This document shows, piece by piece, positions 3,489-41,931 of a DNA stretch of 64,000 nucleotides. Source of the stretch: Actinomycetota bacterium (GTDB taxonomy: Bacteria; Actinomycetota; Geothermincolia; Geothermincolales; RBG-13-55-18); the NCBI GenBank assembly GCA_028697145.1, contig JAQVFR010000003.1:3988-67987 (forward strand). The letters are read 5' to 3'. Below the pieces are notes generated by a model. The model had not been told where the DNA came from. It searched no databases and was given only the letters and a program-made list of their open reading frames with translations. The translations under genes and the position numbers were made by a program. Position 1 is the stretch's first letter; each line of letters starts with the position of its first letter.

Positions 3489-4619
3489 ATGGGCGAAGAA
3501 AACCTCGAGGAGCAGCGGCGGTCCCTTGACCGCTCCAGGCTGCGGCGCGGCTTCATACTGGCGGTGTCCCTCTCCGCCGCTACCCTCGTGATCATCTCCC
3601 TGGTCACCCTGGATCGTGAGACCTTCAGCGCCCTCTCCAACCTCTCGCCCGGCTTCCTCGTCCTGGCCGCGGGCCTCTCCCTGGGCAGGTGGCTGTGGTC
3701 GATTGTGCGCATGCGCCTGCTGATTAGATGTGCCGGCAGGGACGTCCCCGTGCGCAACATAGTGAAGACGGTCTACGCCGGGTACTTCACCGGCCTCGTC
3801 ACCCCCCTGCGCGCGGGCGGTGTCACCGGGGAGATGTTCTTCCTATACGAATATGGGCTGGGCGCGGGCGAGGCTGTGGCCGTGGTCTCCTTCGGCGCCT
3901 GCATCTCCACGGCTCTGCTCCTGCTGCTCTTCCCCTTCGCCATCTGGATAGCCCGGAGCTTTATAGACCTGTCCATTACCATCCAGGGAGTCCTCTTCTC
4001 CGCTCTGGCCATAGGGCTTCTCTACCTGGCCCTGGTACTGTGGGCCATCCTGAGGCCCCATGCCACGGTGGAGAAGACCCTGATCGGATACTCACCCGCC
4101 TTTCTGCGCAGGCGTTCCTGGTACCGCCGCTTCCTCGCGCGCCTCTCCGCCGAGATACAGGCGTTCGCGGGATCCCTGCGGCAGCTGGCGAAGATAGGCG
4201 TGAGGAAACTGGCTTTAGTGGTCGTCCTGACCATGCTCTACTGGTTCACGGGTTTTATGGCCATCCCCGCGGCCGTCGTCGGCCTTGGTTACGGCTCGTA
4301 TTTCTGGCAGGCCGTGGTGGCGCAGCTGGTGGTGCACATCCTCATGCCCTTCGTGCCCACTCCCGGGGGCAGCGGCATCGGCGAAGTCGGCTTCCTCTAC
4401 GTCTACAAGAGCATCCTTCCCGACGTAGGCGTGGCGGGCCTGCTCACCCTCATCTGGCGTTTCATCGATTTCTATCTCGGTCTCCTGGTGGGAGGAGCGG
4501 CCTTCATCCTCATCATGCGGGACATCGGCCGCTCGCCCCGGCGAGAATCCGACGAAGCGGCAGGCGGGGTGGAGGGAGAAGCCGTTGAGATGCAGGCTCC
4601 GCCGCGCGGAAAGACATGA
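3489..4619 (+). CDS. Polytopic membrane protein, lysylphosphatidylglycerol-synthase transmembrane-region/flippase-like family (UPF0104)
   Basis: 376 aa with about eight hydrophobic helices and a PxxPGGxGxxE motif near the C-terminal helices (PFVPTPGGSGIGEVGF), as in the LPG_synthase_TM family. Family assignment is from memory. Confidence 0.45.
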   Translation: MGEENLEEQRRSLDRSRLRRGFILAVSLSAATLVIISLVTLDRETFSALSNLSPGFLVLAAGLSLGRWLWSIVRMRLLIRCAGRDVPVRNIVKTVYAGYFTGLVTPLRAGGVTGEMFFLYEYGLGAGEAVAVVSFGACISTALLLLLFPFAIWIARSFIDLSITIQGVLFSALAIGLLYLALVLWAILRPHATVEKTLIGYSPAFLRRRSWYRRFLARLSAEIQAFAGSLRQLAKIGVRKLALVVVLTMLYWFTGFMAIPAAVVGLGYGSYFWQAVVAQLVVHILMPFVPTPGGSGIGEVGFLYVYKSILPDVGVAGLLTLIWRFIDFYLGLLVGGAAFILIMRDIGRSPRRESDEAAGGVEGEAVEMQAPPRGKT

Positions 4620-4714
4620 GCGGATGCGCAGCACCTCCACTGATATAATCAAGACGTGTCCAGGCGCGGCGGTCACGCGGCCGCCGCGATACCATCGGGA
4701 TGAAAGGAGTTCGC

Positions 4715-5530
4715 ATGTTCGGACCGGGTGATCCCACGGCGATCATCGGCGAGAGGATAAATCCCACCGGACGCGCCAGGCTGGCCGAGGAGCTGCGCGA
4801 GGGGAAGTTGGACAAGGCGCTCTCCGACGCGGCCGCCCAGGCGCAGGCTGGAGCGGACTATATAGACGTCAACGTGGGCGCGCCCGGCGTGGACGAGACG
4901 GTTCTGCTGCCCCGCCTGGTTAAGGCGGTGGCGGAGGAAACGGGCCTGCCCGTGTGCGTCGACTCCGCCGATCCCGACGCCCTGGCCGCGGCCCTGGCCG
5001 TATACGGGGTGCCTGAAGCCATCGTCAACTCCGTCACCGCGGACGACGAGAGCATGGACGCCGTCCTGCCCCTGGTGGGCAAAGCGGGGTGTTACGTCAT
5101 CGCCATGACCAAGGACATGGGCGGTATACCCGCCACCGCGGAGGAGCGCCTGGCCCGGGCGGAGCGCATAGTCGAGCGCGCCTCGGCCCATAGCATCCCG
5201 CCCGGGCGCATCCTCGTGGACTGCCTTACCATCCCCGCCGCCACCGAAACCAACGCGGCCGCCGTGACCCTGCGCTCCATTTCCCTCATCCGCGAGATGC
5301 TGGGCTGCCCGGTGGTCCTGGGCGCCTCTAACATCAGCTTCGGCATGCCCGAGCGGGCGGTCATCAACTCCGCCTTCCTCTGCCTCGCCATAGAGGCGGG
5401 GATGTCGGCGGCCATCGTCAACCCACTGGAACCGGGCCTGGTCCTCTCCATGCGCGCCGCCGATTTCCTCCTGGGCAAGGACCGCATGGGGCGCGCTTAC
5501 CTGAAATACTACCGGGCCCACAAGGCGTGA
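4715..5530 (+). CDS. Pterin-binding methyltransferase (methyl-H4folate/H4MPT:corrinoid methyltransferase, AcsE/MtrH-like)
   Basis: IGERINPTG motif at the N-terminus and a DHPS-like TIM-barrel signature. The RBS GAAAGGAG sits 5 nt before the ATG at 4715 (the ORF-track start 4700 lies upstream in frame). A TATAAT box is at about 4645. Confidence 0.75.
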   Translation: MFGPGDPTAIIGERINPTGRARLAEELREGKLDKALSDAAAQAQAGADYIDVNVGAPGVDETVLLPRLVKAVAEETGLPVCVDSADPDALAAALAVYGVPEAIVNSVTADDESMDAVLPLVGKAGCYVIAMTKDMGGIPATAEERLARAERIVERASAHSIPPGRILVDCLTIPAATETNAAAVTLRSISLIREMLGCPVVLGASNISFGMPERAVINSAFLCLAIEAGMSAAIVNPLEPGLVLSMRAADFLLGKDRMGRAYLKYYRAHKA

Positions 5531-5543
5531 CAAGAGAGGCAGC

Positions 5544-7421
5544 ATGGAATACGACATAACCGTGCAGCCCGGCGGGACGCGGTTCACCTGTCCGAGCGAC
5601 GAGGACCTCCTCACCGCACTGCACGGAGCCGGTATAAACGTGGAGAGTGTTTGCGGGGGCATGGGCACCTGCGGCAAGTGCCGTGTCCGCATCCTGGAGG
5701 GAAAGGTGACGGACCCAACCCTCGAGGAGGAGGACCATCTCTCCGAAGAGCAGCTCGACGGGGGCGAGAGGCTGGCCTGCCAGGTCTTCCCGGAGAGCGA
5801 CCTGGTCATCGAGTTGCCCGATTCCTCCCTGGCAACGGGAGAGAGGCTCCAGCTCGCTTGCGAGCTGGAGGTCGGGGGATTCGATCCGGCCGTCCGCTTC
5901 CACGACCTCGAGGTGGAGATACCCGCCTCACCGGGCGACCACGGCTCCGACCTCCTGCGCCTGCGCGATGCCCTGGGGTCATCGCACCCGGGAGTACGGC
6001 TCGAGGGCGCTGACCTGGAGGGATTGCGCACGCTCCCTACCTTGCTGCGCGAGGAAGGAGGGAACGTACGGGCGGTGACCCGCGCCGGCAAGCTGCTCGG
6101 CCTTCTTCCGAGAGCGCGGAACCCCTTGGGGCTCGCGGTGGACCTGGGGAGCACCAAGGTCGCTCTCTTCCTCTGCGACCTCGCGGAAGGGCGCGTGCTC
6201 GCGAGTCATGGTTTCCTCAACCCCCAGATTCGGCACGGGGAGGACATCGTCACCCGCATACAGTACGCGATGGACAGGGATGCGGCCCGCCTGGGTCAGT
6301 TGGTGGTGGAGGCAATAAACGACAACCTGGACGTGATCAGCGCCGACGCTGGTCTCGGCCGTGAAGACATCTTCGAGATGGTGTTGGTGGGGAACACCGC
6401 CATGCACCACCTCTTCCTCGCGCTGCCGGTAACCCAGCTCGCCATGAGCCCCTACCTCCCGGCCACCGACCTTCCCCTGGAGGTCAAGGCCAGGGACCTG
6501 GGTCTGCAACTCAATCCCGCGGCCGTGGTCTACCTGCCGCCGCCCATCGCCGGCTACGTGGGTTCCGACCACCTGGCGGCGGTGGCCGCCGCGCGCCTTT
6601 GGGAACGTCCGGAACCTTGCCTGCTCCTGGACATCGGCACCAACACCGAGGTCGCCCTGCACGCCGGGGGACGCATGCGCACGTGCTCCTGTGCCTCCGG
6701 TCCCGCCTTCGAGGGTGGGGGCCTGAGCCAGGGGATGCGTGCCGGAGACGGGGCAATCGCCAGGGTATCCGTCGATCCCGCTGCGGGCGGGCTCCGGCTC
6801 TCGGTCATCGGGGACGCAACTGCGAAGGGGATCTGCGGTTCGGGCATCCTCTCGGCGCTCGCCGCCATGGTGGAGACGGGAGCCGTTGACACATCCGGCC
6901 GCATGCGGGAGGACGGTCCCGGTGTGGAACGCCGCGGCGAGGAACTCCTTTTTTACCTCGCCCCCCCGGACTCAGGCAATCCCGAAGGGGTTGCGATCAC
7001 CCAGAACGACGTCCGCGAGATACAGAAGGCGAAGGGCGCCATAAGGGCCGGCGTGGACGCCCTCCTTGCCGAGGCGGGCATAGGCCACGGGGACCTGAAG
7101 GAGGTCGTCCTCGCCGGTGCATTCGGCACCTTTATCGACCCTGCCGACGCCCTCGCCATAGCGCTGCTTCCGCCCGTCCCCACGGGCCTGGTCAACCAGG
7201 TGGGAAACGCCGCCGGAGCCGGTGCGCGTGGCATGCTCTTCTCCGCCGGCGCGCGCGCCGAGGCAGAGGAGGTCGCCCGACGCCTGGAATACCTGGAGCT
7301 TTCCGCCTACCCCGGGCTGAGCAAGCTCTTCGCGGCCGGCATGTACCTGTCGCAGGAGACGGTGCGCGGGGCCAAGGGCCGCTTCGGCCTCCAGGCTCCT
7401 CCGGCCTCAGGACCGGACTGA
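5544..7421 (+). CDS. RACo-like reductive activator of corrinoid proteins (N-terminal [2Fe-2S] ferredoxin plus ASKHA/DUF4445 ATPase domain)
   Basis: The N-terminus carries a plant-type ferredoxin motif C-x4-C-x2-C...C (CGGMGTCGKCRV...LACQ). The C-terminal 450 aa is an ASKHA-type fold (DLGSTKVALF..., IGTNTEV). The 625-aa length matches the RACo family. Confidence 0.8.
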   Translation: MEYDITVQPGGTRFTCPSDEDLLTALHGAGINVESVCGGMGTCGKCRVRILEGKVTDPTLEEEDHLSEEQLDGGERLACQVFPESDLVIELPDSSLATGERLQLACELEVGGFDPAVRFHDLEVEIPASPGDHGSDLLRLRDALGSSHPGVRLEGADLEGLRTLPTLLREEGGNVRAVTRAGKLLGLLPRARNPLGLAVDLGSTKVALFLCDLAEGRVLASHGFLNPQIRHGEDIVTRIQYAMDRDAARLGQLVVEAINDNLDVISADAGLGREDIFEMVLVGNTAMHHLFLALPVTQLAMSPYLPATDLPLEVKARDLGLQLNPAAVVYLPPPIAGYVGSDHLAAVAAARLWERPEPCLLLDIGTNTEVALHAGGRMRTCSCASGPAFEGGGLSQGMRAGDGAIARVSVDPAAGGLRLSVIGDATAKGICGSGILSALAAMVETGAVDTSGRMREDGPGVERRGEELLFYLAPPDSGNPEGVAITQNDVREIQKAKGAIRAGVDALLAEAGIGHGDLKEVVLAGAFGTFIDPADALAIALLPPVPTGLVNQVGNAAGAGARGMLFSAGARAEAEEVARRLEYLELSAYPGLSKLFAAGMYLSQETVRGAKGRFGLQAPPASGPD

Positions 7422-7429
7422 TCAGGGCT

Positions 7430-8662
7430 TCATTCGCCGACGATGGCTTCGCCTGCCACCAAGGCCAGGAAGTCGTTGGAGCCGTCCTCGATCATGCCCG
7501 CGCGGGCGTCGCGGAAGAGCTTCTCTATGGCCGATTCCTTGGAAAGCCCGAATCCTCCCATGAGCTGCACCGCCTCACTGGCCACCTCGAAGGCGGCCTG
7601 GGTGCAGAAGATCTTGGAGGCGATGGAGTACTGCGTGAAGGGCGGATTGGTGTTGAAGTTGAACTCCACGACCGCACGGGAGAATGCCCGGCAGGCCTCC
7701 ACCTGCTTGAACATATGGAAGAGCTTGTAGCGCACCAGCTGGTGCTCTATGAGCTTCTTCCCGCCCTGCACCCGCTGCTTGCAATAGGCCAGCGCCTCCT
7801 CGTAACAGGCGCGCGCCACGCCGGTGAAAAATGCCCCCATGCAGGCGTTGGCAGTGCTGACGGTGATGTCGAGGATGGCCTCGTAGCTCTCTTCGTCGAT
7901 GATCATGTACTCCTTGGGCACCCTCACGTTGTCGAAATAGATCTCGCCCTGGTTCAGAGCGCGCTGGCCCAGTTTGTCCCATGGTTTGCCACGGGTCACG
8001 CCGGGCAGGTCAAGCGGGATGACGCAGATGCCGCCGCCGGCCATGCCCATTTCCGGCTCGATGGTGAGATAGGCGCACGCGTGGGTGGCGATGGTGCCGT
8101 TGGAGACCCAGGCGGCCTTGGTGCCGTTGATGACGTAGTCGTCCCCGTCCAGGGTGGCGCGGCAGGCGGTCCTGGCGATCTCCGGGTCGGAGAACTGTTC
8201 GGTGAAAGGCCCAAGAGTATCGGAGCCGTGGTCGGGCTCGGTGATGGCCCAGCAGCCGATGATCTTGGCCTCCTCGTCCTCGCAGAAGGGTATGATGATG
8301 TTATCGATGAGGAACTCGGTGGGCACCATGCTGGCGATGAAGGCCGGGAAACAGGCCACGCCGAAGGCGATCATGAAATCGACGCTCCCCCAGGATATCT
8401 CCTCGAAGAGCATGTGTACCTCCAGGGGCGAAAAGCCTCCTCCGCCGTAGATCTCCGGCAGGAGTATCTTGTGCATGCCTATCTTGTAGCCCTTCCTGAG
8501 CACGTCCCAGTAGATGTCCTCCCTGGCGATGACGTCCTCGGGCGTCAACTTGTCCAGCTCCAGGCTGGCGGGGCGCAGCACCTCTGCAGCGAAGGTGTGC
8601 ACCATATCCCGGTTCATCCTCTGCACCTTGGTGAGGCCTAGGTTGAGGTCAACATAACCCAC
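7430..8662 (-). CDS. Acyl-CoA dehydrogenase family protein
   Basis: ACAD-like middle and C-terminal domains (GCWAITEPDHGSD, GGFG..E..IEKLFRDAR). The ORF extends to 8731; a GTG at 8662 preceded by AAGGGGGA is the preferred start but is uncertain. Confidence 0.75.
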   Translation of the reverse strand: MGYVDLNLGLTKVQRMNRDMVHTFAAEVLRPASLELDKLTPEDVIAREDIYWDVLRKGYKIGMHKILLPEIYGGGGFSPLEVHMLFEEISWGSVDFMIAFGVACFPAFIASMVPTEFLIDNIIIPFCEDEEAKIIGCWAITEPDHGSDTLGPFTEQFSDPEIARTACRATLDGDDYVINGTKAAWVSNGTIATHACAYLTIEPEMGMAGGGICVIPLDLPGVTRGKPWDKLGQRALNQGEIYFDNVRVPKEYMIIDEESYEAILDITVSTANACMGAFFTGVARACYEEALAYCKQRVQGGKKLIEHQLVRYKLFHMFKQVEACRAFSRAVVEFNFNTNPPFTQYSIASKIFCTQAAFEVASEAVQLMGGFGLSKESAIEKLFRDARAGMIEDGSNDFLALVAGEAIVGE

Positions 8663-8802
8663 GACGGTATCCCCCTTTTTTCGGTGCCAGGTCTCGGTTA
8701 ACGAGTTACCTGGCAATGATTCCCATACCATTCGGTTCTTTACGTACCCCGGAACAGCCCCTGTATACTTCCGGGATTAACAACGAACAAGACCTGACCC
8801 AC

Positions 8803-10416
8803 TTACGAGTAGTCCTCCAACTTAAACACGTTATCGGCGCCTTCTGAGAACTCGTCCTTGAGCACGCGGTCGAGATGCTTCTCCGAAGCGCTCTTGGGGA
8901 TCTCGTTCACCACTTGGATGTAAGAGGGCACCGAGTTCGGCTCCAGCCCGTCCTTCGCCGTCTGGAACACCGAGGCGGGATCTATGGCCTTGCCCTCGAA
9001 GGGCGCGACCGCAGCGACCAGGTCGCTCTCGCCCGGCGCCCCCGAGGCGGCGGGTATGCCGTAGACGCAGACCTCGGAGATGTCGGGGTGCTCGCCGATG
9101 ACCTTCTCCACGTAGGTGGGGATGATGAAGTCCCCCGCCCGCCTCAGGCCGCCGCCCTCCTTGCGGTAGTCGAAGTACAACCACCCCTCCTCGTCCTTGT
9201 GCACCATGTCGCCGGTGCGCAACCAGCCCCCGCGGGTCTTGTCCTGCGAGTCCTTCTCCCTGCCGTAGTACTCCACCTCGGGCTTGACGTTCACGGCCCG
9301 CATGAGCAGCTCGCCGGTGACCCCGGGCGACACCTCGTTGTCGTTCTCGTCCACGACGATGGCCTCCTGTATGCCCTCCAGGGGCTTGCCGAAAGAGCCG
9401 ATGGGCCCCACGCCGATGGGATTGTAGGCGAAGCCGCCCTCCACCGCCCCGTACCACTCCAGGATCTTAACCCCGAACCTCTTCTCGAAGGGCTCCCAGA
9501 TGGGCGCGGGAGTGCCGGCGCTGATGACCACCTCCACGGGATTGTCGGCATCGTCGGGCTTGGGAGGCTCGTTGTAGATGCCCGCCATCATCCCGCCCAG
9601 CAGGGAGAAAGTGGTGCATCCGTACTTGCGGCAGATGTCCCAGATGCGGCTCTTGGTAAAACGCTGGCTGATCACCCCCAGTATGCCCATGGACAGCGCG
9701 GGCAGCAGGCTGATGGCCAGGGCGTTGCCGTGGGTGAGGGACAGGCCGGTGTAGATGACCGTCTCCGGCGTGTACTTCCAGATGAGGGTGGGGGCCAGTT
9801 GCGCGAACATGGCGGTGCGGGTGGACTTGATCACCACCCCCTTGGGATTGCCCGTCACCCCCGAGGTATAAATGATGGCCATGGGCAGGTTGGGGTCGTC
9901 TATCCTCCCCTCCACCTCGAAGACGTCCGGCCCGGCCAGTATCTCGTTTATGGTGGGGTACTTTTTCGCGAGGTCGGGGTCGGCGTCCGGCTTGAGGTTG
10001 AGCCAGATCCTCTCGATCCCCGGTATGTTTTTAACCACGCTCTCCACCTCGGGAAGGAGGTCGGCGGTGGTGATGATCCCCTTCGCCTTGCAGTCCTGCA
10101 GCATATACCCGAGCTTCTCCCCCTTGGTGCGCGGGTCGATGGGCACCGCGATCATCCCCAGCAGCGTGGCGGCACCCGTGGTGAAGACGGACTCGGGGTG
10201 GTTGCGCATAAGGGTGGCCACCGCGTCGCCCTTGCGGAGGCCGAATTCTCTGTACGCCCTGGCCATCTTGAAGGTACTGGCGGCTATCTCCCTGTAAGTA
10301 AGGGGTTCATCCGGATAGAGGCCGCCGTTCTCGAAGATCAGCCCCACCTTGTCCGGGTTCTCCTCCAGCCTCATCTCGATCATGTTGGACATCAACGCCG
10401 GGTTCTTCTCTCCCAT
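8803..10416 (-). CDS. AMP-dependent synthetase/ligase (acyl-CoA synthetase)
   Basis: AMP-binding motif YTSGVTGNPKGV plus TGD...DGW. The ATG at 10416 has the RBS GAAAGG 9 nt upstream. The ORF-track start at 10425 is a GTG directly abutting that RBS, so the ATG is more likely. Confidence 0.85.
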   Translation of the reverse strand: MGEKNPALMSNMIEMRLEENPDKVGLIFENGGLYPDEPLTYREIAASTFKMARAYREFGLRKGDAVATLMRNHPESVFTTGAATLLGMIAVPIDPRTKGEKLGYMLQDCKAKGIITTADLLPEVESVVKNIPGIERIWLNLKPDADPDLAKKYPTINEILAGPDVFEVEGRIDDPNLPMAIIYTSGVTGNPKGVVIKSTRTAMFAQLAPTLIWKYTPETVIYTGLSLTHGNALAISLLPALSMGILGVISQRFTKSRIWDICRKYGCTTFSLLGGMMAGIYNEPPKPDDADNPVEVVISAGTPAPIWEPFEKRFGVKILEWYGAVEGGFAYNPIGVGPIGSFGKPLEGIQEAIVVDENDNEVSPGVTGELLMRAVNVKPEVEYYGREKDSQDKTRGGWLRTGDMVHKDEEGWLYFDYRKEGGGLRRAGDFIIPTYVEKVIGEHPDISEVCVYGIPAASGAPGESDLVAAVAPFEGKAIDPASVFQTAKDGLEPNSVPSYIQVVNEIPKSASEKHLDRVLKDEFSEGADNVFKLEDYS

Positions 10417-10454
10417 GCATATCACCCTTTCAATGCGTCATGCGGCTTCCGCCC

Positions 10455-11096
10455 TCATTCCACCGCGCCCATGAAGCGCCGCGTGAAGGAGGGGAACTCC
10501 TCTGCGAACTTCTCCGCCCATTCCTCCTTCGTCCAGTACTTGTGGCGGTCGAAGAAGGGGTTGCGGACCTGGCAGCTCACTGCCACGCCGATGCAGAAAT
10601 CTACGTCCTCGATGAACTCGCATGCCGGGGCGGCCGCCCCGATGGTCTGAAAGACACGGCAGTGCAGCCCCATGTAATGGGCCACGGCCGCAGCCGCGTT
10701 GGCGGCCATGTGCACGTCGTAGACGACGAAATGGCAGCAGGGGCCGTTGATGATCGACTCCACGTCCTCCGCCTTGTTCAGCTCCTCGCAGGTAGCGAAG
10801 CCGCAGGCGCCGCAGTCGTAGTTATAGACGGACTTGCGCCTGGCCCCCAGGAGCAGGGCGCGCGTGTCCTGCTGCGCCAGGTCCACGAAGGCGCGGCCGT
10901 CGCGATTGAAGAGGGGCGAGACCTCGGCCACTCCCTCGCAGTAGCCAGACAGGTCGTCGAACTCCTCGGGCCCGATGGCCGATATCCTGATCTTGGGATG
11001 ACCGAACTTGAGCGCGGTGTTCGCCGCCACCGCCATGAGTTCCAGCGCCCGGTCGATGCCGCTCGCGAGGAGATCGTCACCGTTGATGATAGCCAT
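10455..11096 (-). CDS. Cys-rich ferredoxin-like protein (DUF2148-like, C-x2-C-G-x3-C), paralogue 1
   Basis: 213 aa containing YDCGACGFATCEE, GPCCHFVVYD and an additional AAAPAC Cys. The ATG at 11096 follows a GGGGGGG RBS. It is tightly stacked after its paralogue (stop TAG at about 11112). Confidence 0.55.
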   Translation of the reverse strand: MAIINGDDLLASGIDRALELMAVAANTALKFGHPKIRISAIGPEEFDDLSGYCEGVAEVSPLFNRDGRAFVDLAQQDTRALLLGARRKSVYNYDCGACGFATCEELNKAEDVESIINGPCCHFVVYDVHMAANAAAAVAHYMGLHCRVFQTIGAAAPACEFIEDVDFCIGVAVSCQVRNPFFDRHKYWTKEEWAEKFAEEFPSFTRRFMGAVE

Positions 11097-11111
11097 ATCT
11101 CTCACCCCCCC

Positions 11112-11783
11112 CTAGCAGTAGATGGACCGGAAGGTCGGGAATAGCCGGTGTATGAGGCGGTTCTGCAGGGTCTCGTCGTTGTATTCCGCCCACTCTCTGG
11201 GCAGGTCTGCGAAGGGGCTCTTCTCCGTCACCGCGGCGAGGAAGCCCAGGGCGATGTCGCACTTGTAGGGCAGCAGCCCCATCCTCAGGGCGGCGGCCCC
11301 CACCGACATCTTGATGGCATGGTCGATACCCAGCTGGCGCGCCAGGGTCACGGCTCCGTTCAGGGCATAGGCCATGTTCATGGAGCGCAGCAGGCAGAAC
11401 GGGCCGCGGAAAGCGACCGACGGCGCGTCCGGCACCCTCTCGGCGTCACGCCACATGTCACAGAGCAGGTGCCCGCAGAGGTTGCAGTTGGAGTCCATGG
11501 GATCGTGGCTCGAGCGGCGGTCGGCCATGATCATGACCACGTCCGAGTCGCGCACCTGCACCGCGTCGGAGCGGAAAAATTCCCAGCGCGGGTTGTCGGC
11601 GGCCATCCTGTCGATGGCGATAGCCAAATCCTCTATCTCGTCCCTGGAATCCAGGACGTGGATGCTTATCTCGTCCACCCCGCCCACGCGGGGCGAGGTC
11701 GTCGCCGAGGCCAGGAGGAGCTTGCAGGCAAGCCTGACGCTTTCCTCCCTCCTTTCCTCGTACTCCCTCATCTTTCTTTCCAT
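11112..11783 (-). CDS. Cys-rich ferredoxin-like protein (DUF2148-like), paralogue 2
   Basis: Carries SNCNLCGHLLCDMW, the same C-x2-C-G-x3-C spacing as paralogue 1. The ATG at 11783 follows a GGGAGGGGG RBS. Confidence 0.5.
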   Translation of the reverse strand: MERKMREYEERREESVRLACKLLLASATTSPRVGGVDEISIHVLDSRDEIEDLAIAIDRMAADNPRWEFFRSDAVQVRDSDVVMIMADRRSSHDPMDSNCNLCGHLLCDMWRDAERVPDAPSVAFRGPFCLLRSMNMAYALNGAVTLARQLGIDHAIKMSVGAAALRMGLLPYKCDIALGFLAAVTEKSPFADLPREWAEYNDETLQNRLIHRLFPTFRSIYC

Positions 11784-11867
11784 GATGGGACCCCCTCCCT
11801 GCAAAGGAAACTCTTACGAAAACCTCCGGCATGCGCCTTTCCGCATCGCCGTCTCCCGGCAATAAGG

Positions 11868-12269
11868 CTACATGGGAAGGCCGTATTCCTCGCAGATAGC
11901 TGGGTAGGCCTCGTATGCCGGCTTGAGCAAGGGGAGCATGCCGAGGATCTTGGCCATGGGACCCTTGGCCTTGACCTTCCTCTTGGCCAGGGCCACGGGC
12001 AGCTTCAGGTTCTGCAGCCAGAAATTATGGCAGTCGTCGCCGGCCAGCCACATGATCACGTCGCCCTCGGCGTCGGTGGCTCCCACGGCCAGCCCCGGCT
12101 TGTCCGTGCCGTGCAGCAGCCAGATCTCTCCATCGGGGTCGTTGATGACGAACTGTACATTGATGTTCTCGTCGTTGAACTTCTGGCTGACGCTTTCGTT
12201 TTCGAGCAGTTTCGTGAAGAGCTTGCCAAGGACCTCGTACATGAACTCAGTGTCCTTGAATACCGGCAT
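11868..12269 (-). CDS. SCP2 sterol-carrier/lipid-transfer domain protein
   Basis: 133 aa beginning MPVFKDTEFMYEVLGKLF...WLLHGTDKPG...GDDCHNFWLQNLKLPVALAKRKVKAKGPMAKILGM, which fits the SCP2 fold consensus. The RBS AAAGGGG sits 9 nt upstream of the ATG at 12269. The ORF-track N-terminal extension is R/P-rich and judged non-coding. Confidence 0.7.
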   Translation of the reverse strand: MPVFKDTEFMYEVLGKLFTKLLENESVSQKFNDENINVQFVINDPDGEIWLLHGTDKPGLAVGATDAEGDVIMWLAGDDCHNFWLQNLKLPVALAKRKVKAKGPMAKILGMLPLLKPAYEAYPAICEEYGLPM

Positions 12270-12330
12270 AGCGCACACCCCTTTCACTCGCACCTTTTCC
12301 TCACACGCCCAGACTTGACAGCCATATAAC

Positions 12331-12355
12331 ATACCCAAGTATGATACCAAGGTAT
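12331..12355. promoter_or_regulatory. Operator-like double palindrome, site 1, between the divergent SCP2 operon and tetR
   Basis: Sequence ATACCCAAGTATGATACCAAGGTAT, made of two adjacent 12-mers of the ATACC-NN-GGTAT type. It is 22/25 identical to the site at 17427. A TTGACA hexamer lies at about 12314. Confidence 0.6.
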
Positions 12356-12537
12356 CTAATGCGGTGCCCCTCGTCAAGTGGAATAGTCTTGTATTTTCCG
12401 CGAACGGGGGGGCGGCGGACAAACGCCCGGGGAGCGTAGCGGGCGCGCGGCATCCGCGCAGGTTGTTCGCGCTCCCGGGGCGTGGTAGATTCTGTTGTAG
12501 CGACATGATCGCTTTGAATCGGGCAACGGGGGACAAC

Positions 12538-13146
12538 ATGGCGAAGAAGCGGACTGCGCCCAGGACGGAGAAAGGCATAAACACGCGGCAGGCGATTTTC
12601 GATACCGCCATCGCCCTGTTCGCGAAGCGGGGCTATGACAAGGTCACCATCGACGACATCTGCGACAAGGTCGGGGTCACCAAGGGCGCCTTCTACAACT
12701 ATTTCGAGTCCAAGGACCAGATCATCCTGGAGGAGTTCATGCGCATGGACGATCACTACGTCAAGGTCGCGCATGACATAGCGGACTTAAAGAGCAGCGC
12801 GGAGAAACTGCGCGTGTTCAACCGCGAAGCGGTCAAGCTCATGGCCGACCTCGGAGTCACCATGATGAAGGTGGTCTATCACTCCCAGATCGCTCCGAAC
12901 ATGCGCAGACCCTATCTCATGGACGGCAGGCGCTCCCTCTATAAGATCACGAACGAGCTTATAAAGGAGGGCCAGGAGAAGGGAGAGATCCGCGACGACA
13001 TCGCCAGCGAGGAGATGGCGGTCATGCTCATCAACTGCTTCCGCGGCCAGATCTATCACTGGTGCCTGGCAAACGGCTCCTTCGACCTGGTGGGCACCTG
13101 CGACACGCTTTTCGACCTCATAATGGATCGCCTCACGCCGCGCTAG
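12538..13146 (+). CDS. TetR/AcrR-family transcriptional regulator
   Basis: N-terminal helix-turn-helix AIFDTAIALFAKRGYDKVTIDDICDKVGVTKGAFYNYF. The first ATG after the divergent intergenic region is at 12538. Confidence 0.85.
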   Translation: MAKKRTAPRTEKGINTRQAIFDTAIALFAKRGYDKVTIDDICDKVGVTKGAFYNYFESKDQIILEEFMRMDDHYVKVAHDIADLKSSAEKLRVFNREAVKLMADLGVTMMKVVYHSQIAPNMRRPYLMDGRRSLYKITNELIKEGQEKGEIRDDIASEEMAVMLINCFRGQIYHWCLANGSFDLVGTCDTLFDLIMDRLTPR

Positions 13147-20341: not shown

Positions 20342-22834
20342 TTACTTGTTGAACGCGCCCTCCCCCACCTCGCCGGTGAAGATGGGCTCGTAGAATCGCC
20401 TGCGCGCTTCGGGGTAGTTCTCGAAACTCAGGCCGATGCGCTCGTTGAGGTCCATTCCGAGGTTGCGGTACACCAGCCACGGCGGCAATCCGTCCCTCAG
20501 GGCAACCGCCTTGATGAGAAGCTGCCCCAGGGTGAGGGTGACGTCCCCGCCGACCATGCGCTTGAAGGACGCTTCCTCCTCGTAGGCGTCCCACTCCGCC
20601 TCCGAGTACGCCGGGAGGATGCCCTTGTCCCTGGCCTTCTCTATGTCCATGGCCATGATCATGCGCTCGATCTCGAACGCGTTGCCGACGGCGCCCAGCG
20701 GCATTCCCACCAGACCCAGCTTCTCGACTATCTCGTTGACGACGGGGATACCCTCCTCGGGGCCCATGAGTATGGTCTCGTTCTCTCCGCGGGACAATCC
20801 CCCGGGGATGGGAGAGACTATCTCCATGCCGTTGGAGAGGCGCATGGAGGACATGAGCCCGTACTTGCCCGCCCCCAGGGTTGAGGGGAAGGCGGTGACG
20901 GAGCTGATGGTAACGTCCGGACCCACGCCGGAGGTGACGGCCGCCCCGCTGCGCCAGTCCTCGGCGGATTTCTGCATGTAGTAATAAAGGCCGGCGCGGT
21001 TGGAGAGGAACACGCCGCCCAGCTTGGCCAGGACGACCCTGCCCCGCGGCCGGTAGGAGGCAGCCAGCGTGGCCGTGACCTCTAGGGGGTCGGGCAGGGT
21101 ATCGGGCTGGGTGGAGCGGTGGGAGATGACGGTGTTGAAGCCGGCGGAGTGGAACACCTCCATGTACATCCAGGCCTGGGAAAAGGTGCCAACCTGGTTC
21201 AGCTTCACCAGGCCCGCGTTACACACGCCCTGCTTGAGGGCATCGTATGCAATGGTAGGGTTCGTCACCAGGCTGTCGTCGCCGATGATGACCATCTTGT
21301 CACCGAGCTCTTCCGTCAACCTCTGCCAGAACCTCCACTGGCTCTCGGGCGCCGCGAAGGGGTCCTCGGAGGCGAGCTGGTGCCCCCACTGGTAGAAGAG
21401 CTCTATGTAGCGGTCGCACAACTCATCCCCGCTCATCTTGCGCCCCTGCCAGGTATAGAGGTGCGTCTCGGGGTCGAACATGGTGTCCGAGTCCGCGGCG
21501 TTGTCTATGCCCAGGAACACGTTCTCGCCGTAGAGGTATCCGTGCTTCGCGCCCGCCTTGCCCACGGCCTCCATGAGCAGCTTGATGGCCGCCTCGTCCC
21601 CGCCGCCGTAGCCGTTGAAGGAGCATCCCCCCTCGTTCTCGCGGCCTCCCCCGGATACTCCCTCCCGGGAAAGTATCTCCGCCACGATCTGGTTCTGGAG
21701 GGCCGGCAGCACCCGCAGGGTACCGAAGAAACCCCGGCTGGCGACGTCGTCCGTCTCCTGCGGGAAGAGGATGATCCACTTCTCCTGGGCCACCAGGTCG
21801 GGAGAGGTGTTGCCCTTGTTGCCCTCGGCGTCCACGTACTCGGTGTGCTTGCCCGCCTGGATGGCATTGTGCGCCCCCTCGGGCAGGTAGACCGCTACGC
21901 CCTTGAAGCGGGGATCGTCTCCCCCGTATTCCGCCCAGTTACGCACCTCGCCGATGAGCCGCTCGTAATTGCTCTTCGCGCGGCTGTCGATCTCCTCGCG
22001 GCCGGCGTCCACTCTCATGGTGCCGGCGGCAGCCTGGGCGGCCAGCTCAGCCTCTATCTTCCTCTTCTCGCGGTAGCGGTACATGGCGTTGTTGTCCTGA
22101 TGCCTCCCCAGGAAAGCGATGGTGCCCAGGGCGAGGATGCGTGGGGTTATGTAAGCCATGACCTCATTTATCGGCGTTTCCGGCCAAGCTACGCGCCAGG
22201 CGATGGAGAACCCGAAGAGGGCAAGGCCGGAGAGGCCGGCGATGTAGGCCACCCAGAGGTCGAAGCGCGAGCCGGCGGCGGCCACGTTGAGGGCCGGGGT
22301 GCCGTTGAGGCGGTAGTTCAGGCCCTCCTTGATGATGGCCGGGTACTTGCCGGCGGGCCCGAGGAGGAACATCTTGGCCAGTTCGGTCCAGAAGCCGCCG
22401 CTGCCGGTCCTGAACTTGACCGAGCCGTCCTCCTGCCTCTCCACCAGCCTCGCCCCGATGGTCTCCTGTAGGCTGCGCTCGAGGTTGTACGTCTTCGCCG
22501 CCTCCAGGACATGCAGGGTGTGGTGTCCGCCGAGCATGAAGTACGCGAAGAGGATGCCGAGCGCTATGGATACGCTGAACTCGATGGCGAAGCCTCCTAT
22601 GGAGCCGGACATGGTCTCGGCTATGCTTGGGTAGAACAGGGAGACCAGGACCTGCACGTGCAGGGCCACGGCGAAATAGCCCCATTTCACGAACTCGGAG
22701 GTGGACCAGGCGCCCAGGAATATGCCCTCTCTCCAGCTCCTTGGCATGATCGCCGACATTATCCTGTCGAAGCGTGGGTTGTACGCAGCGCCAGTGCGCT
22801 GCGCCAAGGGTTTTCTTCCTGACTTGCTCACCAC
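20342..22834 (-). CDS. Membrane-anchored enolase-superfamily fusion: four N-terminal TM helices, a complete enolase domain and a 230-aa C-terminal domain of unknown function
   Basis: Residues 1-260 contain four hydrophobic helices. Residues 270-600 carry enolase motifs GREEIDSRAKSNYE (enolase N-terminus), GYGGGDE, IDNAADSDTMFD, LASEDPFA, IIGDDSLVTNP, KLNQVGTFSQ and ISHRSTQPDT. A GTG start at 22834 sits 11 nt after GAGGAGG. The reading frame is continuous. Confidence 0.8.
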   Translation of the reverse strand: MVSKSGRKPLAQRTGAAYNPRFDRIMSAIMPRSWREGIFLGAWSTSEFVKWGYFAVALHVQVLVSLFYPSIAETMSGSIGGFAIEFSVSIALGILFAYFMLGGHHTLHVLEAAKTYNLERSLQETIGARLVERQEDGSVKFRTGSGGFWTELAKMFLLGPAGKYPAIIKEGLNYRLNGTPALNVAAAGSRFDLWVAYIAGLSGLALFGFSIAWRVAWPETPINEVMAYITPRILALGTIAFLGRHQDNNAMYRYREKRKIEAELAAQAAAGTMRVDAGREEIDSRAKSNYERLIGEVRNWAEYGGDDPRFKGVAVYLPEGAHNAIQAGKHTEYVDAEGNKGNTSPDLVAQEKWIILFPQETDDVASRGFFGTLRVLPALQNQIVAEILSREGVSGGGRENEGGCSFNGYGGGDEAAIKLLMEAVGKAGAKHGYLYGENVFLGIDNAADSDTMFDPETHLYTWQGRKMSGDELCDRYIELFYQWGHQLASEDPFAAPESQWRFWQRLTEELGDKMVIIGDDSLVTNPTIAYDALKQGVCNAGLVKLNQVGTFSQAWMYMEVFHSAGFNTVISHRSTQPDTLPDPLEVTATLAASYRPRGRVVLAKLGGVFLSNRAGLYYYMQKSAEDWRSGAAVTSGVGPDVTISSVTAFPSTLGAGKYGLMSSMRLSNGMEIVSPIPGGLSRGENETILMGPEEGIPVVNEIVEKLGLVGMPLGAVGNAFEIERMIMAMDIEKARDKGILPAYSEAEWDAYEEEASFKRMVGGDVTLTLGQLLIKAVALRDGLPPWLVYRNLGMDLNERIGLSFENYPEARRRFYEPIFTGEVGEGAFNK

Positions 22835-23096: not shown

Positions 23097-25733
23097 CTAC
23101 AGCCTTATGCGCAGATCGGAGACGGGATAGCTCATGCAGGGATGGATGTATCCGAAATGCTCGTCCGCCCAGCGCCTGAGAACGCGCGCGGGCGCGAAGA
23201 ACTCGCCCGCCACCAGGCGGGTGCGGCAATAAGTGCACTCCCCTGAACGGCAGACGGCCTCGACGACCAGGCCCGCCCGCTCCATGGAGTTCATGAGGGG
23301 CTCGCCGGCCCTGGCCTTGAAGGTCATGCCCGAACGCTCCTCTACCACCTCGAACTCCGTCTCGGGCGCGACTCCAGGCCAGCCTTTCTCCATGGTCACA
23401 TCGTCCGGGGGGCCGTAGGCCTCTTTTTTCACGCGCGTTCCCGGCACCGACAACGCCGCCAGCGCGCCCTCGCAGAACGGGTACATCTCGGGCGGCCCGC
23501 AAATATAGAAGGTCCTGCCCTCCACGTTGCCCAGTGCGCTCGATATCATGTCCGCGTCGATGAATCCGCACAGTCCGCCCCAGTCGCTGTCCGGCTCGGA
23601 GATGATGAAGTCCACGTCGATGTTGTCGTTCTCCGATCCCAGTTGAGCCAGCTCCTTGCGGAAGATGATGTCCCCCGCCTCGCGGGACCCGTAGAGAAGG
23701 TGGATGCGCAGGGGACTCCCCTTCTCCACGACCTCGCGCATGATGGACATGAACGGGGTGATGCCGCTGCCGCCCGCGAGGAACACCAGGTCGGAGCCGT
23801 CCACGAGCGGTTCGTGGTAGAAGCTGCCCGCGGGCCCCGTGGACTCCAGCACGTCCCCTGCCCCCACCTCGTCCAGCAGGCAGGAGGAGACGAAACCCCC
23901 CGCCTTGCGCCTGACCGTGATGTCGTAATACGGCTTTCCGGGAGCGGAAGAGATGCTGTACGGCCGCGAGGTCTTCACTCCGCCCGCCTCGACGAAGAGG
24001 TTGACGTACTGCCCCGCGCGGAACGCGGGAAGAGTCCCCTCCACCGGCACCAGGCGCAGGGTCCTGGCGCTTTCCGTCTCCTCCAGGACCTCAGACACCC
24101 GGAGCGAGAGGCGGTGCGGGTGCAGGCCGGCCATGGACTTGTCGACCGCGTGGGCATCCATTTCTATCTCCGGCGCCTCGGCCGCCTGGTTCTCACAGAA
24201 GGTCTTGAGGCCGTCGATGGCGGCCGCCTCCATGCCTCCCTTCTCCATGTCCTCGAGGACGTCCTCCGCCGCCGTAACGCCGGAATTGATGCAGGGCTGA
24301 AAGCCCCCGCCCGTGCGCACCCAGGCGCCGGCGAGGTAGAGCCCCCGCACCGGGCCGCGGTTGGGGAGGCGCATCATCGTCCCCTCCGCCGGCGAGTTCT
24401 CATACCCGTAGACCGCCCCGTAGGCGTTACCCGTGTAGCGCATGTGGGTGAGGGGGGTTGCGACCTCCACCTCCTCGATATGCTCCTTGAGCCCGGGCGC
24501 CACCTTGTCCGCGAGGTCGATGAGCCTGCCGGCCAGGGTGTTCTTGGCCTCAACGTACCGCTCGGGGGAGAGGTCGAGCCACACGTCGCCGTAACCCATG
24601 GTGGTAAGGGATACGGCGCACGTACCCGGGGGAGAGAAGTCCGGGTCCACGATGTTATAGGGGGCTATGGCGCATCCCGTTGGCTCGAAGACGGCGCTGC
24701 GCCTGGCCACCTCGTAATGGTTCTCGAAATCGTAGTCCATGTTGAACATGGTCTCGTGGTTCTCCAGACCCAGTTCCGACACGGGGCAGTCCAGGCCGAG
24801 GAAGACGGAGAAGAGGGAGTTGCCGATAGTCCCCCAGCCCAGGCGCTTGAGGTACCAGGAAGGGATGTTCTCGCGCCCCACGAGGTCGATGCAGGTGGCG
24901 ATGGGGCTGGCGTTGCTCACTACGTAAGACGTGGATATCTCCGCGCCGTCCTCCGCGACCACGCCCCGCACCTCATTGCCCTCCAGCACTATGCGTGAGG
25001 CCCCGTTGTTGAGCCACACATCCCCGCCGTTCTCCATGATGGATTCCACGAAGGCCTGGGAGAGGGCCTGGCTCTTGCCCTTTATGTGCACCGGGCCGTA
25101 CTTGAGGTAGATGGCGTTGGCGATGGCGAAGAGGAGGAATGAGAGCTTGGAGGGCGGGAGGCCGTAATAGCCCCAGAGCTGCGCGATCACCGACCTTGCC
25201 TTTTCGTCCTTGACCTCCGCGTTCAGCACGTCCGCAAGGTTGGCGCCGGCATAGGTCATGAGGTTGGTGAAGGCCGAAGGGTCCTTGGCCATGGCGTCGG
25301 GGGTGAAATTTTCGACTTCCTCCATGATGGCGAACATGAGGGAGGTGAACTTCCTGATCCCCTCCTTCTCGACGGGGAAATGTTCGCACAGCACCTCGTC
25401 GTAGCCCGCGTGGTCGGCCGGCATCACGAGGTCGAGGTCCGGGTAGAGGCTGCGGTAGAAGTCCGGGATGTCCAGAAACTCCACCTTCTGTGCCACACCG
25501 CACTTCTCCAGCGTGCGGTACAGGGGCCCTCGCCGGTCGGCGTGGCCGAGTCCGGAGAGCTCGTGCAGGGAGATCTCGAACTCGAAGCGCCCGCGGCGAA
25601 AGGTGGAGGCGTATCCTCCCGGTACGCAATGTTTCTCCAGGAGCAGGACCTTCTTGCCGGCCACCGCCAGGTTCGCCGCCGCGGAGAGCCCGCCGAGCCC
25701 CGCCCCTACGACCACGGCATCGTAATCTCTCAT
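23097..25733 (-). CDS. Three-domain flavoprotein: CrtI/phytoene-desaturase-family FAD oxidoreductase, FNR-like FAD/NAD(P)-binding reductase and plant-type [2Fe-2S] ferredoxin
   Basis: N-terminal Rossmann motif DYDAVVVGAGLGG, then PGGYASTF..GRFEFEIS and a C-terminal LYLAGAWVRTGGG (CrtI family). The middle region has RPYSISS and LAGGSGITP (FNR-like). The C-terminus has CRSGECTYCRTRLVAGE...C. The ATG at 25733 follows GGAGAGGGAGG. Confidence 0.8.
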   Translation of the reverse strand: MRDYDAVVVGAGLGGLSAAANLAVAGKKVLLLEKHCVPGGYASTFRRGRFEFEISLHELSGLGHADRRGPLYRTLEKCGVAQKVEFLDIPDFYRSLYPDLDLVMPADHAGYDEVLCEHFPVEKEGIRKFTSLMFAIMEEVENFTPDAMAKDPSAFTNLMTYAGANLADVLNAEVKDEKARSVIAQLWGYYGLPPSKLSFLLFAIANAIYLKYGPVHIKGKSQALSQAFVESIMENGGDVWLNNGASRIVLEGNEVRGVVAEDGAEISTSYVVSNASPIATCIDLVGRENIPSWYLKRLGWGTIGNSLFSVFLGLDCPVSELGLENHETMFNMDYDFENHYEVARRSAVFEPTGCAIAPYNIVDPDFSPPGTCAVSLTTMGYGDVWLDLSPERYVEAKNTLAGRLIDLADKVAPGLKEHIEEVEVATPLTHMRYTGNAYGAVYGYENSPAEGTMMRLPNRGPVRGLYLAGAWVRTGGGFQPCINSGVTAAEDVLEDMEKGGMEAAAIDGLKTFCENQAAEAPEIEMDAHAVDKSMAGLHPHRLSLRVSEVLEETESARTLRLVPVEGTLPAFRAGQYVNLFVEAGGVKTSRPYSISSAPGKPYYDITVRRKAGGFVSSCLLDEVGAGDVLESTGPAGSFYHEPLVDGSDLVFLAGGSGITPFMSIMREVVEKGSPLRIHLLYGSREAGDIIFRKELAQLGSENDNIDVDFIISEPDSDWGGLCGFIDADMISSALGNVEGRTFYICGPPEMYPFCEGALAALSVPGTRVKKEAYGPPDDVTMEKGWPGVAPETEFEVVEERSGMTFKARAGEPLMNSMERAGLVVEAVCRSGECTYCRTRLVAGEFFAPARVLRRWADEHFGYIHPCMSYPVSDLRIRL

Positions 25734-26086
25734 GTCGCAACCTCCCTCTCCGTCACCCGATCCGCTGCCAGTAACAAGTCTAGATTGAGTATTACCCCCA
25801 AGTTTGACGGCGTAAACTCGCGCGCGCCCGGAAAATGACGGGGTGTGGGGGCCCGTCCCCTCATAAGGGTAGAATGGGCAACGAGCAGCGCTTGCGATGT
25901 GCAAAGGGGCTGGAATGTATGGACATCACAGTTAGACAAGAGGGAAGCGCGCATATCGCGTTGATAAGAAGCCGAAAGTATTGATCGCCGATGTGGACGA
26001 CGCATTGGACCCCGCGAACGGCTAAGAAGACCACGGGGCTAGACGGATCGCGGGTGCCTCATCCCGGGAAATACGGACCGGTGCGC

Positions 26087-30653: not shown

Positions 30654-30687
30654 AAAAAACGGCCTCTTTGTTTCGAAAAGAGGCCGG
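30654..30687 (-). terminator. Rho-independent terminator (minus strand)
   Basis: 9-bp stem cggcctctt/aagaggccg followed on the minus strand by TTTTTT. Confidence 0.6.
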
Positions 30688-30927
30688 TTTCACTATTAGC
30701 TCAGAACGTTATTAGTGACCATCTCATAAAACGTTCGTCATCGCTTCCTCTTAGACTGATCTAAACCTAGTGCTTTCATCTATCTAGTAAGTCCATCCTT
30801 AAGATAAAGCACGGACTCGTGCCCTTCTATGATTCAGATCAGGCAACTTTGATCATGAGAACGGCAGTTGGACAGCGGCAGTCTCGAGGCGTATCCGGGG
30901 CGGCGCGAACCTTCTGCTCCGTAATGC

Positions 30928-31170: not shown

Positions 31171-31560
31171 CCGAGGTAAAAAGACGATCGGGGCAGACCG
31201 GTCAGATCATAACTTCCGCGGCTCAAAGCCCCCACCCTCTCATCACCTCGCTTAATAGGCACCAAGTGTTTTTGTCCCTTTACGGTGCTGATTGATACCT
31301 GCTGTTGATTTTAGCAGAGAGCCCGGTGGGGAATGCCATTAAGGCCGTGGCCTGCATCTATCCGCGTTCTTCAAAAAGATGTTTCGCCTCGTCATGTATG
31401 GGGAAACACGATATAACGATATATATACGGTCCTGTATAGACAAAGGAAAAATATGTTATAATACGGTTGCTTGCACAATAGTTATATATCAAGGGATGC
31501 TGGGATCCGCGTTCTCGACATGGTCACCTGGGGACGCGGGGAGCTAAATGGTGAAACCGG

Positions 31561-31590
31561 CCCGATCGCAAGAGTGGTCGGGTTTTTTTA
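31561..31590 (+). terminator. Stem-loop plus T-tract, plus strand (terminator/attenuator of a possible leader or sRNA)
   Basis: cccgatcg-caagag-tggtcggg followed by TTTTTTTA. Upstream are TATAAT at about 31456 and a TTGCAC hexamer nearby. Confidence 0.4.
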
Positions 31591-31871
31591 TACACCGGTA
31601 CGGCTGACAAAAAGGGAGAGAGGGATAGGGCCAAGAGAGAACGGCTGAGACCGGAGAATGGGCAGTTTTCCCGGTTGCGGCCAGAGTTCATCCGGCGTAG
31701 ATGCACGGGGCAATGCTGCTGAAACGGCACGATCTCGACTATCTCATCGATGGCCTGAGCCTCACCTTTTTTATCCGTGCCTGGCGGGAGGGTGTCTTTC
31801 CCGCGTAATAGCGGGAATGACGCTGTTCACGCTGAGTAACCGACTGCATGAAAAGAAAGGGAGGTGAGATC

Positions 31872-41883: not shown

Positions 41884-41931
41884 CGTCATTTGCTCCCTTC
41901 GAATCGATGTTCCTTACCGCTAGCCCCGTCC

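Follow-up and report, generated by a model that had tools for sequence, protein, structure and literature searches.

A pterin-binding methyltransferase and a RACo-type activase in a Candidatus Solincola-like actinobacterium: probable back end of an O-demethylase-type methyl-transfer system

The pair and the systems closest to it

Methyl-transfer systems of the O-demethylase type are understood to combine four parts, namely a methyltransferase I (MT-I) of the URO-D fold, a corrinoid protein (CP), a pterin-binding methyltransferase II (MT-II) and a RACo activase. Biochemical work has demonstrated this scheme, in which the activase uses ATP to reduce Co(II) to Co(I), MT-I methylates the CP, and MT-II passes the methyl group on to the pterin (PMC8630106). 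In Acetobacterium dehalogenans, 26 methyltransferase systems occur together with four activases, and one activase serves several CPs (PMC13222342). The donors of URO-D-fold MT-I proteins in general are methoxy-aromatics, haloalkanes or unknown (PMC13222342). A separately encoded activase or MT-II is not unusual. Here, we analyzed 64,000 nucleotides (in the following, the window) of contig JAQVFR010000003.1 from an uncultured actinobacterium, in which a pterin-binding methyltransferase (MT) is directly followed by a RACo-type activase. We conclude that the pair very probably represents the MT-II and activase back end of an O-demethylase-type cobamide-dependent methyl-transfer system, and we consider it rather likely that the partner CP is encoded elsewhere in the genome. 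The system is of a known kind, and separate encoding of the activase has already been documented.

Features of the locus, in window coordinates:
4715–5530, + strand: predicted methyl-tetrahydrofolate (H4folate):corrinoid methyltransferase (MT) of the MT-II type, a pterin-binding TIM barrel of 271 aa (PF00809, PDB, NCBIfam)
5544–7421, + strand: RACo-type ATP-dependent reductive activator of corrinoid proteins, 625 aa (Pfam, 3ZYY alignment)
4641–4649, + strand: TGATATAAT, an extended −10-like element and putative promoter of the MT–RACo pair (9-mer shared among relatives)
4544–4740, + strand: junction segment standing in place of the 3.95-kb front-end cassette found in the relative L114 (blastn of window against L114)
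3489–4619, + strand: flippase-like LPG_synthase_TM membrane protein (Pfam PF03706, E 3e-27; TIGR00374 match)
7430–8731, − strand: convergent acyl-CoA dehydrogenase, its end 8 nt from that of RACo

A gene map based on GC content at third codon positions, combined with Pfam scans of all large open reading frames (ORFs) in the window, gave three co-oriented genes on the + strand, which encode the LPG_synthase_TM protein, the Pterin_bind protein and RACo. The MT and RACo ORFs were confirmed at the coordinates above and are intact. Since AAAGGAG lies at 4703–4709, 5 nt upstream of the ATG at 4715, this codon is the better MT start. Only 13 nt separate the MT stop from the RACo start, and RACo has a Shine-Dalgarno-like ribosome-binding site, GAGAGG; with this spacing and this site, MT and RACo form an operon.

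MT covers the full Pfam Pterin_bind model (PF00809, E 4e-32, residues 17–241 on model positions 1–244). Its top solved homologue is the O-demethylase MT-II of Desulfitobacterium hafniense (4O0Q, 143 bits), followed by MeTr/AcsE of Carboxydothermus hydrogenoformans (2YCI, 134 bits), the MetH pterin module of Thermotoga maritima (113 bits) and Moorella MeTr (99 bits), and all top PDB matches are methyltransferases of the methyl-H4folate:corrinoid type. On the broad NCBIfam model PRK07535, MT scores 256.5 bits, 2.5 under the cut-off of 259; MT-II proteins validated by their gene context reach 269–286 bits, clade relatives 240–260 bits, and the context-validated MT-IIs (P0078, L010) share the NCBIfam profile of the window MT. 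The pterin-site residues Asp83 (CVDS), Asn105 (VNSV), Asp169 (VDC) and Asn206 (GASNISFGMP) are present, in motifs that align with the same motifs of 4O0Q and 2YCI. From the work on Moorella MeTr, we take Asp, Asn and Asp to be the residues of the pterin site and the Asn of the SN(I/V)SFG motif to be the catalytic one. The NCBI record of MT (MDD3717396.1; RACo is MDD3717397.1) bears the name dihydropteroate synthase, an identity that an earlier interpretation of the letters alone (the sequence-only reading) had singled out for checking. It is rejected, as MT scores 25.2 bits on the dihydropteroate synthase model TIGR01496 (cut-off 162.6) and its PDB matches are all methyltransferases.

RACo shows the complete Pfam architecture of its family, Fer2 (PF00111, E 2.6e-14), RACo_linker, Raco_middle and RACo_C_ter (PF17650, PF17651 and PF14574, all above cut-off), and aligns with C. 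hydrogenoformans RACo (3ZYY) over residues 2–596 (E 1.7e-103, 350 bits). The [2Fe-2S] cysteines Cys37, Cys43, Cys46 and Cys79 stand in the CGGxGTCGKC...LACQ pattern of 3ZYY, and the ASKHA motifs read DLGST (199), DIGTN (363) and GNAAGAGA (554). Given these full-length matches to solved structures, the folds of both MT and RACo are settled, including that of the 625-aa protein, on which the sequence-only reading had made its case depend; its description of an AcsE/MtrH-like pterin methyltransferase followed by a RACo thus stands. ATP-dependent reduction of Co(II) on a cognate CP is the predicted activity of RACo. By analogy with the two families, an electron would enter the [2Fe-2S] domain and ATP hydrolysis by the ASKHA part would drive the inactive Co(II) to Co(I) on a CP, while MT would move the methyl group between a protein-bound cobamide and N5 of tetrahydrofolate.

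A side observation concerns the C-terminus of RACo (window 7388–7421), which reads ...GRFGLQAPPASGPD, where most orthologues end in ...RFKL. The stop codon is shifted by 9 additional residues relative to the orthologues, and the gene end is now 8 nt from the convergent acyl-CoA dehydrogenase gene.

Compared with the described bacterial and archaeal O-demethylase systems, i.e. Odm/Vdm of A. dehalogenans, Dhaf of D. hafniense, MtoABCD of Methermicoccus shengliensis and CdmBCA, the window has in common the pterin-binding MT-II and an activase with an N-terminal [2Fe-2S] domain, but it lacks MT-I and CP within 64 kb. RACo also shares its domain order and identical CGGxGTCGKC and ASKHA motifs with C. 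hydrogenoformans RACo (3ZYY / 4C1N), the activator of the corrinoid iron-sulfur protein (CoFeSP). Unlike the latter, it lies outside an acs cluster and scores 385 bits on the AcsV model (cut-off 800), so that canonical AcsV membership is rejected. Likewise, MT has the fold and pterin-binding residues of AcsE/MeTr and, as far as sequence can predict it, would transfer methyl groups in the same way, from H4folate to a protein-bound cobamide or back, yet canonical AcsE membership is rejected too (NF040758, 115 bits; cut-off 370), and neither in the window nor in relatives do CoFeSP or ACS genes adjoin it.

The absence of partners from the window was seen in two ways. Pfam detected no B12-binding, URO-D, MttB, MtaB, homocysteine-methyltransferase, CdhD/AcsC or ACS domain in the ~55 large ORFs of the 64 kb, and CdhD, AcsC and ACS families were not found in the flanks of the relatives either. 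Six-frame tblastn of the window with CP, URO-D, DUF1638, CobW and three short MetH proteins from related loci as queries gave nothing below E 0.007 except MT itself; the match at E 0.007 is a chance similarity inside a molybdopterin oxidoreductase gene, and the N-terminal homocysteine module of the three short MetH queries had no match in the window. A search with Rfam found no cobalamin riboswitch in the 64 kb and no other RNA element near the pair. The window therefore does not hold a CP and a URO-D-fold MT-I beside MT-II and activase. In this, the sequence-only reading, which had reported no CP and no methyltransferase I nearby, was right for the 64 kb, whereas its claim that the partner must be encoded elsewhere goes too far.

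The locus among relatives

Relatives recast the pair as the remainder at a locus where they hold a complete CP/URO-D/DUF1638/CobW/MT/RACo operon. We defined the syntenic locus by its copper ATPase, RseC and LPG_synthase_TM genes and considered relatives whose RACo is at least 55% identical. Three states of the locus are found:
Pair only, as in the window: L003, L004/L005, L012, L013, L014, L113
Full cluster, L114: in the order LPGs, CP, URO-D, 49-aa ORF, DUF1638, CobW, 121-aa protein, MT, RACo
Full cluster, L015: as L114, with a GntR/UTRA regulator and a second CP in addition
Full cluster, L112: the same operon in another genomic neighbourhood
RACo only: L111 and Ca. Solincola sp. L008, without cassette and without MT

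The full cluster of three further contigs was inferred from the joint presence of these contigs among the MT, RACo and CP search matches, and a metagenome scan with RACo returned mostly distant matches and no new close loci. The closest distinct relative of the window is L114, with MT 90% and the N-terminal half of RACo 83% identical. In a blastn comparison of the two, homology stops at window position 4543 (L114 1582) and resumes at 4741 (L114 5535), so that 197 bp of the window face 3,952 bp of L114; this 3.95-kb cassette sits between the same upstream gene, LPG_synthase_TM, and MT. The 208-aa CP of L114 has the D. hafniense O-demethylase CP (4JGI) as its best PDB match, and the best match of its URO-D protein is CdmB, a URO-D-fold MT-I (77 bits, C-terminal half only); on the MtaA/CmuA models, the clade MT-I stays sub-threshold.

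The same components are gathered in more distant lineages. In the outgroup L009 (MT 57%, RACo 47% identical), GntR, two CPs, CobW, a 126-aa protein, DUF1638 and URO-D genes accompany MT, which directly precedes RACo, and the Chloroflexota loci L010 and L011 hold CP, URO-D, RACo and MT together. All four parts of an O-demethylase-type system are hence found side by side at L114, L015 and L112 as well as in L009, L010 and L011. The likeness of the window pair to such systems lies in these operons, where its orthologues sit with a 4JGI-like CP and a CdmB-like URO-D-fold MT-I. Together with the domains and the structure matches, the operons bear out that the pair belongs to a cobamide-dependent methyl-transfer system. 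As for the systems that the sequence-only reading had listed, the URO-D proteins of the relatives favor an O-demethylase-like one over the MttB/MtaB systems or a canonical AcsE.

Beyond the classical four components, the operon of the clade comprises DUF1638, CobW and a conserved protein of 121–126 aa. The latter has no Pfam or NCBIfam match, shares the motif VPGHIKA and always stands beside CobW (L114 5095–5460; L112 8777–9151; L009 5693–6073; L015 about 9590–9970), between CobW and MT in L114, L112 and L015 and between CobW and DUF1638 in L009. It is an accessory part of these operons for corrinoid methyltransferases and so far uncharacterised. The CP of the clade's full clusters is 61–70% identical to proteins of Thermacetogenium phaeum, Syntrophomonadaceae and Moorella-type Bacillota, compared to 47–49% to L009, which hints that Bacillota acetogens or syntrophs and these Actinomycetota once exchanged the cassette.

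Proteins identical to those of the pair are found in metagenome-assembled genomes of Actinomycetota; among named organisms, Candidatus Solincola daggyaiensis (MT 81%) and Ca. Solincola tengchongensis/sp. (RACo 54–55%) come closest. The host is a Candidatus Solincola-like member of the Actinomycetota, class Candidatus Geothermincolia, in agreement with the actinobacterial anaerobe expected from the sequence-only reading. No paper linking Geothermincolia with corrinoid proteins was found in the literature searched.

RACo is kept at the locus in every relative, even in L008 and L111, which lack both cassette and MT, and this would fit a constant client such as CoFeSP. The pair could accordingly be a module of the Wood-Ljungdahl methyl branch, in which MT, as AcsE, would carry the methyl group of CH3-H4folate to CoFeSP and RACo would activate CoFeSP; acsCD and the genes of carbon monoxide dehydrogenase/acetyl-CoA synthase would then lie elsewhere. 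Indeed, Candidatus Solincola genomes have been reported with both branches of the Wood-Ljungdahl pathway, acsE included (PMC12917137), 3ZYY, matched over the full length, is a solved RACo that serves CoFeSP, and the score of MT against the AcsE 2YCI comes near that against the MT-II 4O0Q. However, MT and RACo remain below the AcsE and AcsV cut-offs as given above, orthologues 78–90% identical lie within URO-D/CP operons in which the MT is an MT-II, no acs or cdh gene occurs in the window or within 10 kb in the relatives examined, and the RACo-only relatives would require another AcsE anyway. We regard this explanation as possible but unlikely.

The DUF1638 protein of the full clusters also recalls the split cobalamin-dependent methionine synthase (MetH) of Phaeobacter and Ruegeria, which consists of a pterin protein, MtgC/MtbC, a homocysteine protein, a RamA-like protein and DUF1638. 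Were the pair part of such an enzyme, the B12- and homocysteine-binding proteins would be separate and the RACo/RamA-like protein would take over from the AdoMet reactivation domain. The two have in common a pterin-binding protein that stands alone and a reactivator of the ferredoxin-ASKHA type, and genetic work in Phaeobacter inhibens demonstrated a three-gene MetH with a ferredoxin plus DUF4445 reactivator and a DUF1638 protein (PMC5764234); in Ruegeria, the bidirectional pterin methyltransferase MtgD serves methionine synthesis as well as betaine demethylation (PMC12478193). Moreover, the JGI name of MT homologues is 5-methyltetrahydrofolate--homocysteine methyltransferase, and MT is 42–45% identical to the pterin module of short MetH proteins (tblastn, 204 bits at 45%). 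What speaks against a methionine synthase is that a homocysteine S-methyltransferase domain (PF02574) is absent from the window and from the full clusters L009, L015, L112 and L114, where the second methyltransferase is of the URO-D type. In addition, the GntR/UTRA regulators in L015 and L009 suggest an inducible catabolic operon, and the presence or absence of the cassette among close relatives fits an accessory catabolic better than an essential biosynthetic operon. This origin of the pair is improbable.

Cassette loss, junction and selection

Among L114, L015 and L112, the cassette genes are 65–81% identical, and 36–49% to L009; in the same comparison, MT shows 79–83% and 58–60%, RACo 60–61% and 45–46%. 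The cassette thus diverges in step with MT and RACo, so that the common ancestor already had the whole operon as a linked unit and the pair-only state arose from it. In a neighbour-joining tree of MT plus RACo, the groups of window and L114, of window, L114 and L003, and of L004, L014 and L015 each have a bootstrap support of 100%. Full-cluster genomes are hence nested among pair-only ones, and more than one change of state is needed.

The junction in the window contains TGATATAAT, which occurs a single time in the 64 kb. The 9-mer is found again 49–161 nt 5' of the MT start in L003, L012, L013 and L113 and 57 nt 5' of RACo in the RACo-only locus L111, and the full-cluster loci L114, L015 and L112 lack it. 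From this distribution we infer that TGATATAAT is the promoter of the MT–RACo pair; a consensus promoter scan made no call at this site, which is without a −35 match. Because the element is common to the window, L003, L012, L013, L113 and L111, it suggests a common cassette-free allele, possibly spread by recombination. Neither tblastn nor blastn detected relics of the cassette in the junction segment of the window or in the intergenic regions of the pair-only loci. A GC-rich hairpin in the 5' leader (4650–4720) was considered as well and folds no better than shuffled sequence (z −1.2).

Purifying selection on MT and RACo persists without the cassette. At synonymous divergences (dS) of 0.5–1.0, the median ratio of nonsynonymous to synonymous substitution rates (dN/dS) of MT is 0.20 in comparisons between pair-only genomes vs 0.15 between full-cluster genomes, and that of RACo 0.32 vs 0.33; both ORFs are intact in 7/7 pair-only genomes examined. 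These data bear on the notion that the pair is a non-functional remnant of the front-end deletion, en route to loss, for which one might invoke the graded series of full cluster, pair and RACo only at the same locus and the slightly higher MT dN/dS of the pair-only genomes. With every examined ORF intact, dN/dS far below 1, unimpaired catalytic and cofactor motifs, a conserved promoter-like element and ribosome-binding sites in place, we consider such a remnant very improbable.

We thus return to the pair as a back end of the O-demethylase type. According to this proposal, the front end, consisting of CP, URO-D MT-I, DUF1638, CobW and the 121-aa protein, is missing from the locus, and the pair, probably transcribed alone and kept by selection, most likely serves at least one CP encoded elsewhere, either that of another MT-I/CP module or the Wood-Ljungdahl CoFeSP. 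Since RACo is retained in every state of the locus and MT in most, and since the lineage has a reported Wood-Ljungdahl pathway, both are plausible clients.

Several points weigh against this proposal. The TGATATAAT junction shared by the pair-only genomes conflicts with simple independent deletions and implies allele exchange or retained polymorphism. The client of the pair is deduced from selection, and the search for a CP to serve was confined to the window. A search with the clade's CP gave full-cluster contigs only and no clade CP on the pair-only contigs of 489535, 243048 and 156151 bp, but only very similar CPs could rank in it, which makes it uninformative on paralogous corrinoid proteins. 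Furthermore, MT is as similar to the short-MetH pterin module (45%, 204 bits) as to solved MT-II or AcsE, so that sequence alone does not fix the partner. For the relatives' URO-D MT-I, the CdmB match of only 77 bits does not fix the methyl donor.

In a variant of this proposal, MT-II and RACo of Solincola-like Actinomycetota may form a fixed, independently transcribed back end at which substrate-specific cassettes would be gained, lost or exchanged at one junction, and which would persist without any of them as it also serves CoFeSP. We hold this variant to be rather unlikely. If true, one activase, and perhaps one pterin methyltransferase, would link methyl scavenging with acetyl-CoA synthesis.

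Genomic surroundings and meaning for Geothermincolia

The LPG_synthase_TM gene lies directly 5' of the pair, the full cluster or the lone RACo in L003, L004, L008, L012–L015, L111, L113 and L114. It is a conserved upstream marker of the syntenic locus, and its tie to the pair is one of position. Neighbouring genes of the window encode a copper P-type ATPase, many acyl-CoA dehydrogenases, CoA ligases, hydratases, a thiolase, TetR regulators and cell-envelope proteins, and by Pfam none of the surrounding genes in the 64 kb belongs to C1 metabolism. Downstream of RACo, a conserved − strand cluster (7430–12611) encodes, besides the acyl-CoA dehydrogenase and a small SCP2-like protein, an AMP-forming CoA ligase and two DUF2148 ferredoxin-domain proteins in tandem; a TetR regulator (12364–13146) is divergent from it. 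This cluster also adjoins the locus in L003, L111 and L113, regardless of the state of the methyltransferase operon.

Several further features of the window stand out. Two c-di-GMP-II riboswitches (30673–30757, −, 61 bits; 31486–31569, +, 48 bits; both above the gathering score) point outward from a low-GC divergent intergenic region, and each leads a large SdrD_B/SpaA/CarboxypepD_reg repeat surface protein (28509–30608, −; 31848–34289, +), which suggests two adhesin-like proteins under c-di-GMP control. Two proteins have an unusual architecture: one of 830 aa (20342–22834, −) with a partial Enolase_C match at residues 389–576 only, and one of 935 aa (23097–25904, −) that joins an amine-oxidase-like flavoprotein, an FNR-like FAD/NAD module and a C-terminal 2Fe-2S ferredoxin. 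A 484-aa protein of the HpaB_N/HpaB family (40435–41889, −) is embedded among many acyl-CoA dehydrogenase, hydratase and MaoC genes; in anaerobes, the HpaB family includes 4-hydroxybutyryl-CoA dehydratase too. As such, the window looks like a region rich in acyl-CoA and beta-oxidation genes.

For the annotation of metagenome-assembled genomes (MAGs), our analysis corrects a database name, as MT has been recorded as a dihydropteroate synthase. It also carries a more general lesson: a lone RACo or pterin methyltransferase is no proof of methylotrophic or demethylating capacity, for which the front-end genes are needed. The interest for the C1 metabolism of Geothermincolia is local and lies in a cassette that is present or absent at one junction next to a conserved back end. 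Altogether, the locus places a cobamide-dependent methyl-transfer module in uncultured Geothermincolia, which have so far been discussed mainly for their Wood-Ljungdahl pathway. Some members of the lineage have a complete URO-D/corrinoid operon, which may act on methoxylated aromatics or on a different methyl donor, and close relatives have lost its substrate-specific half.

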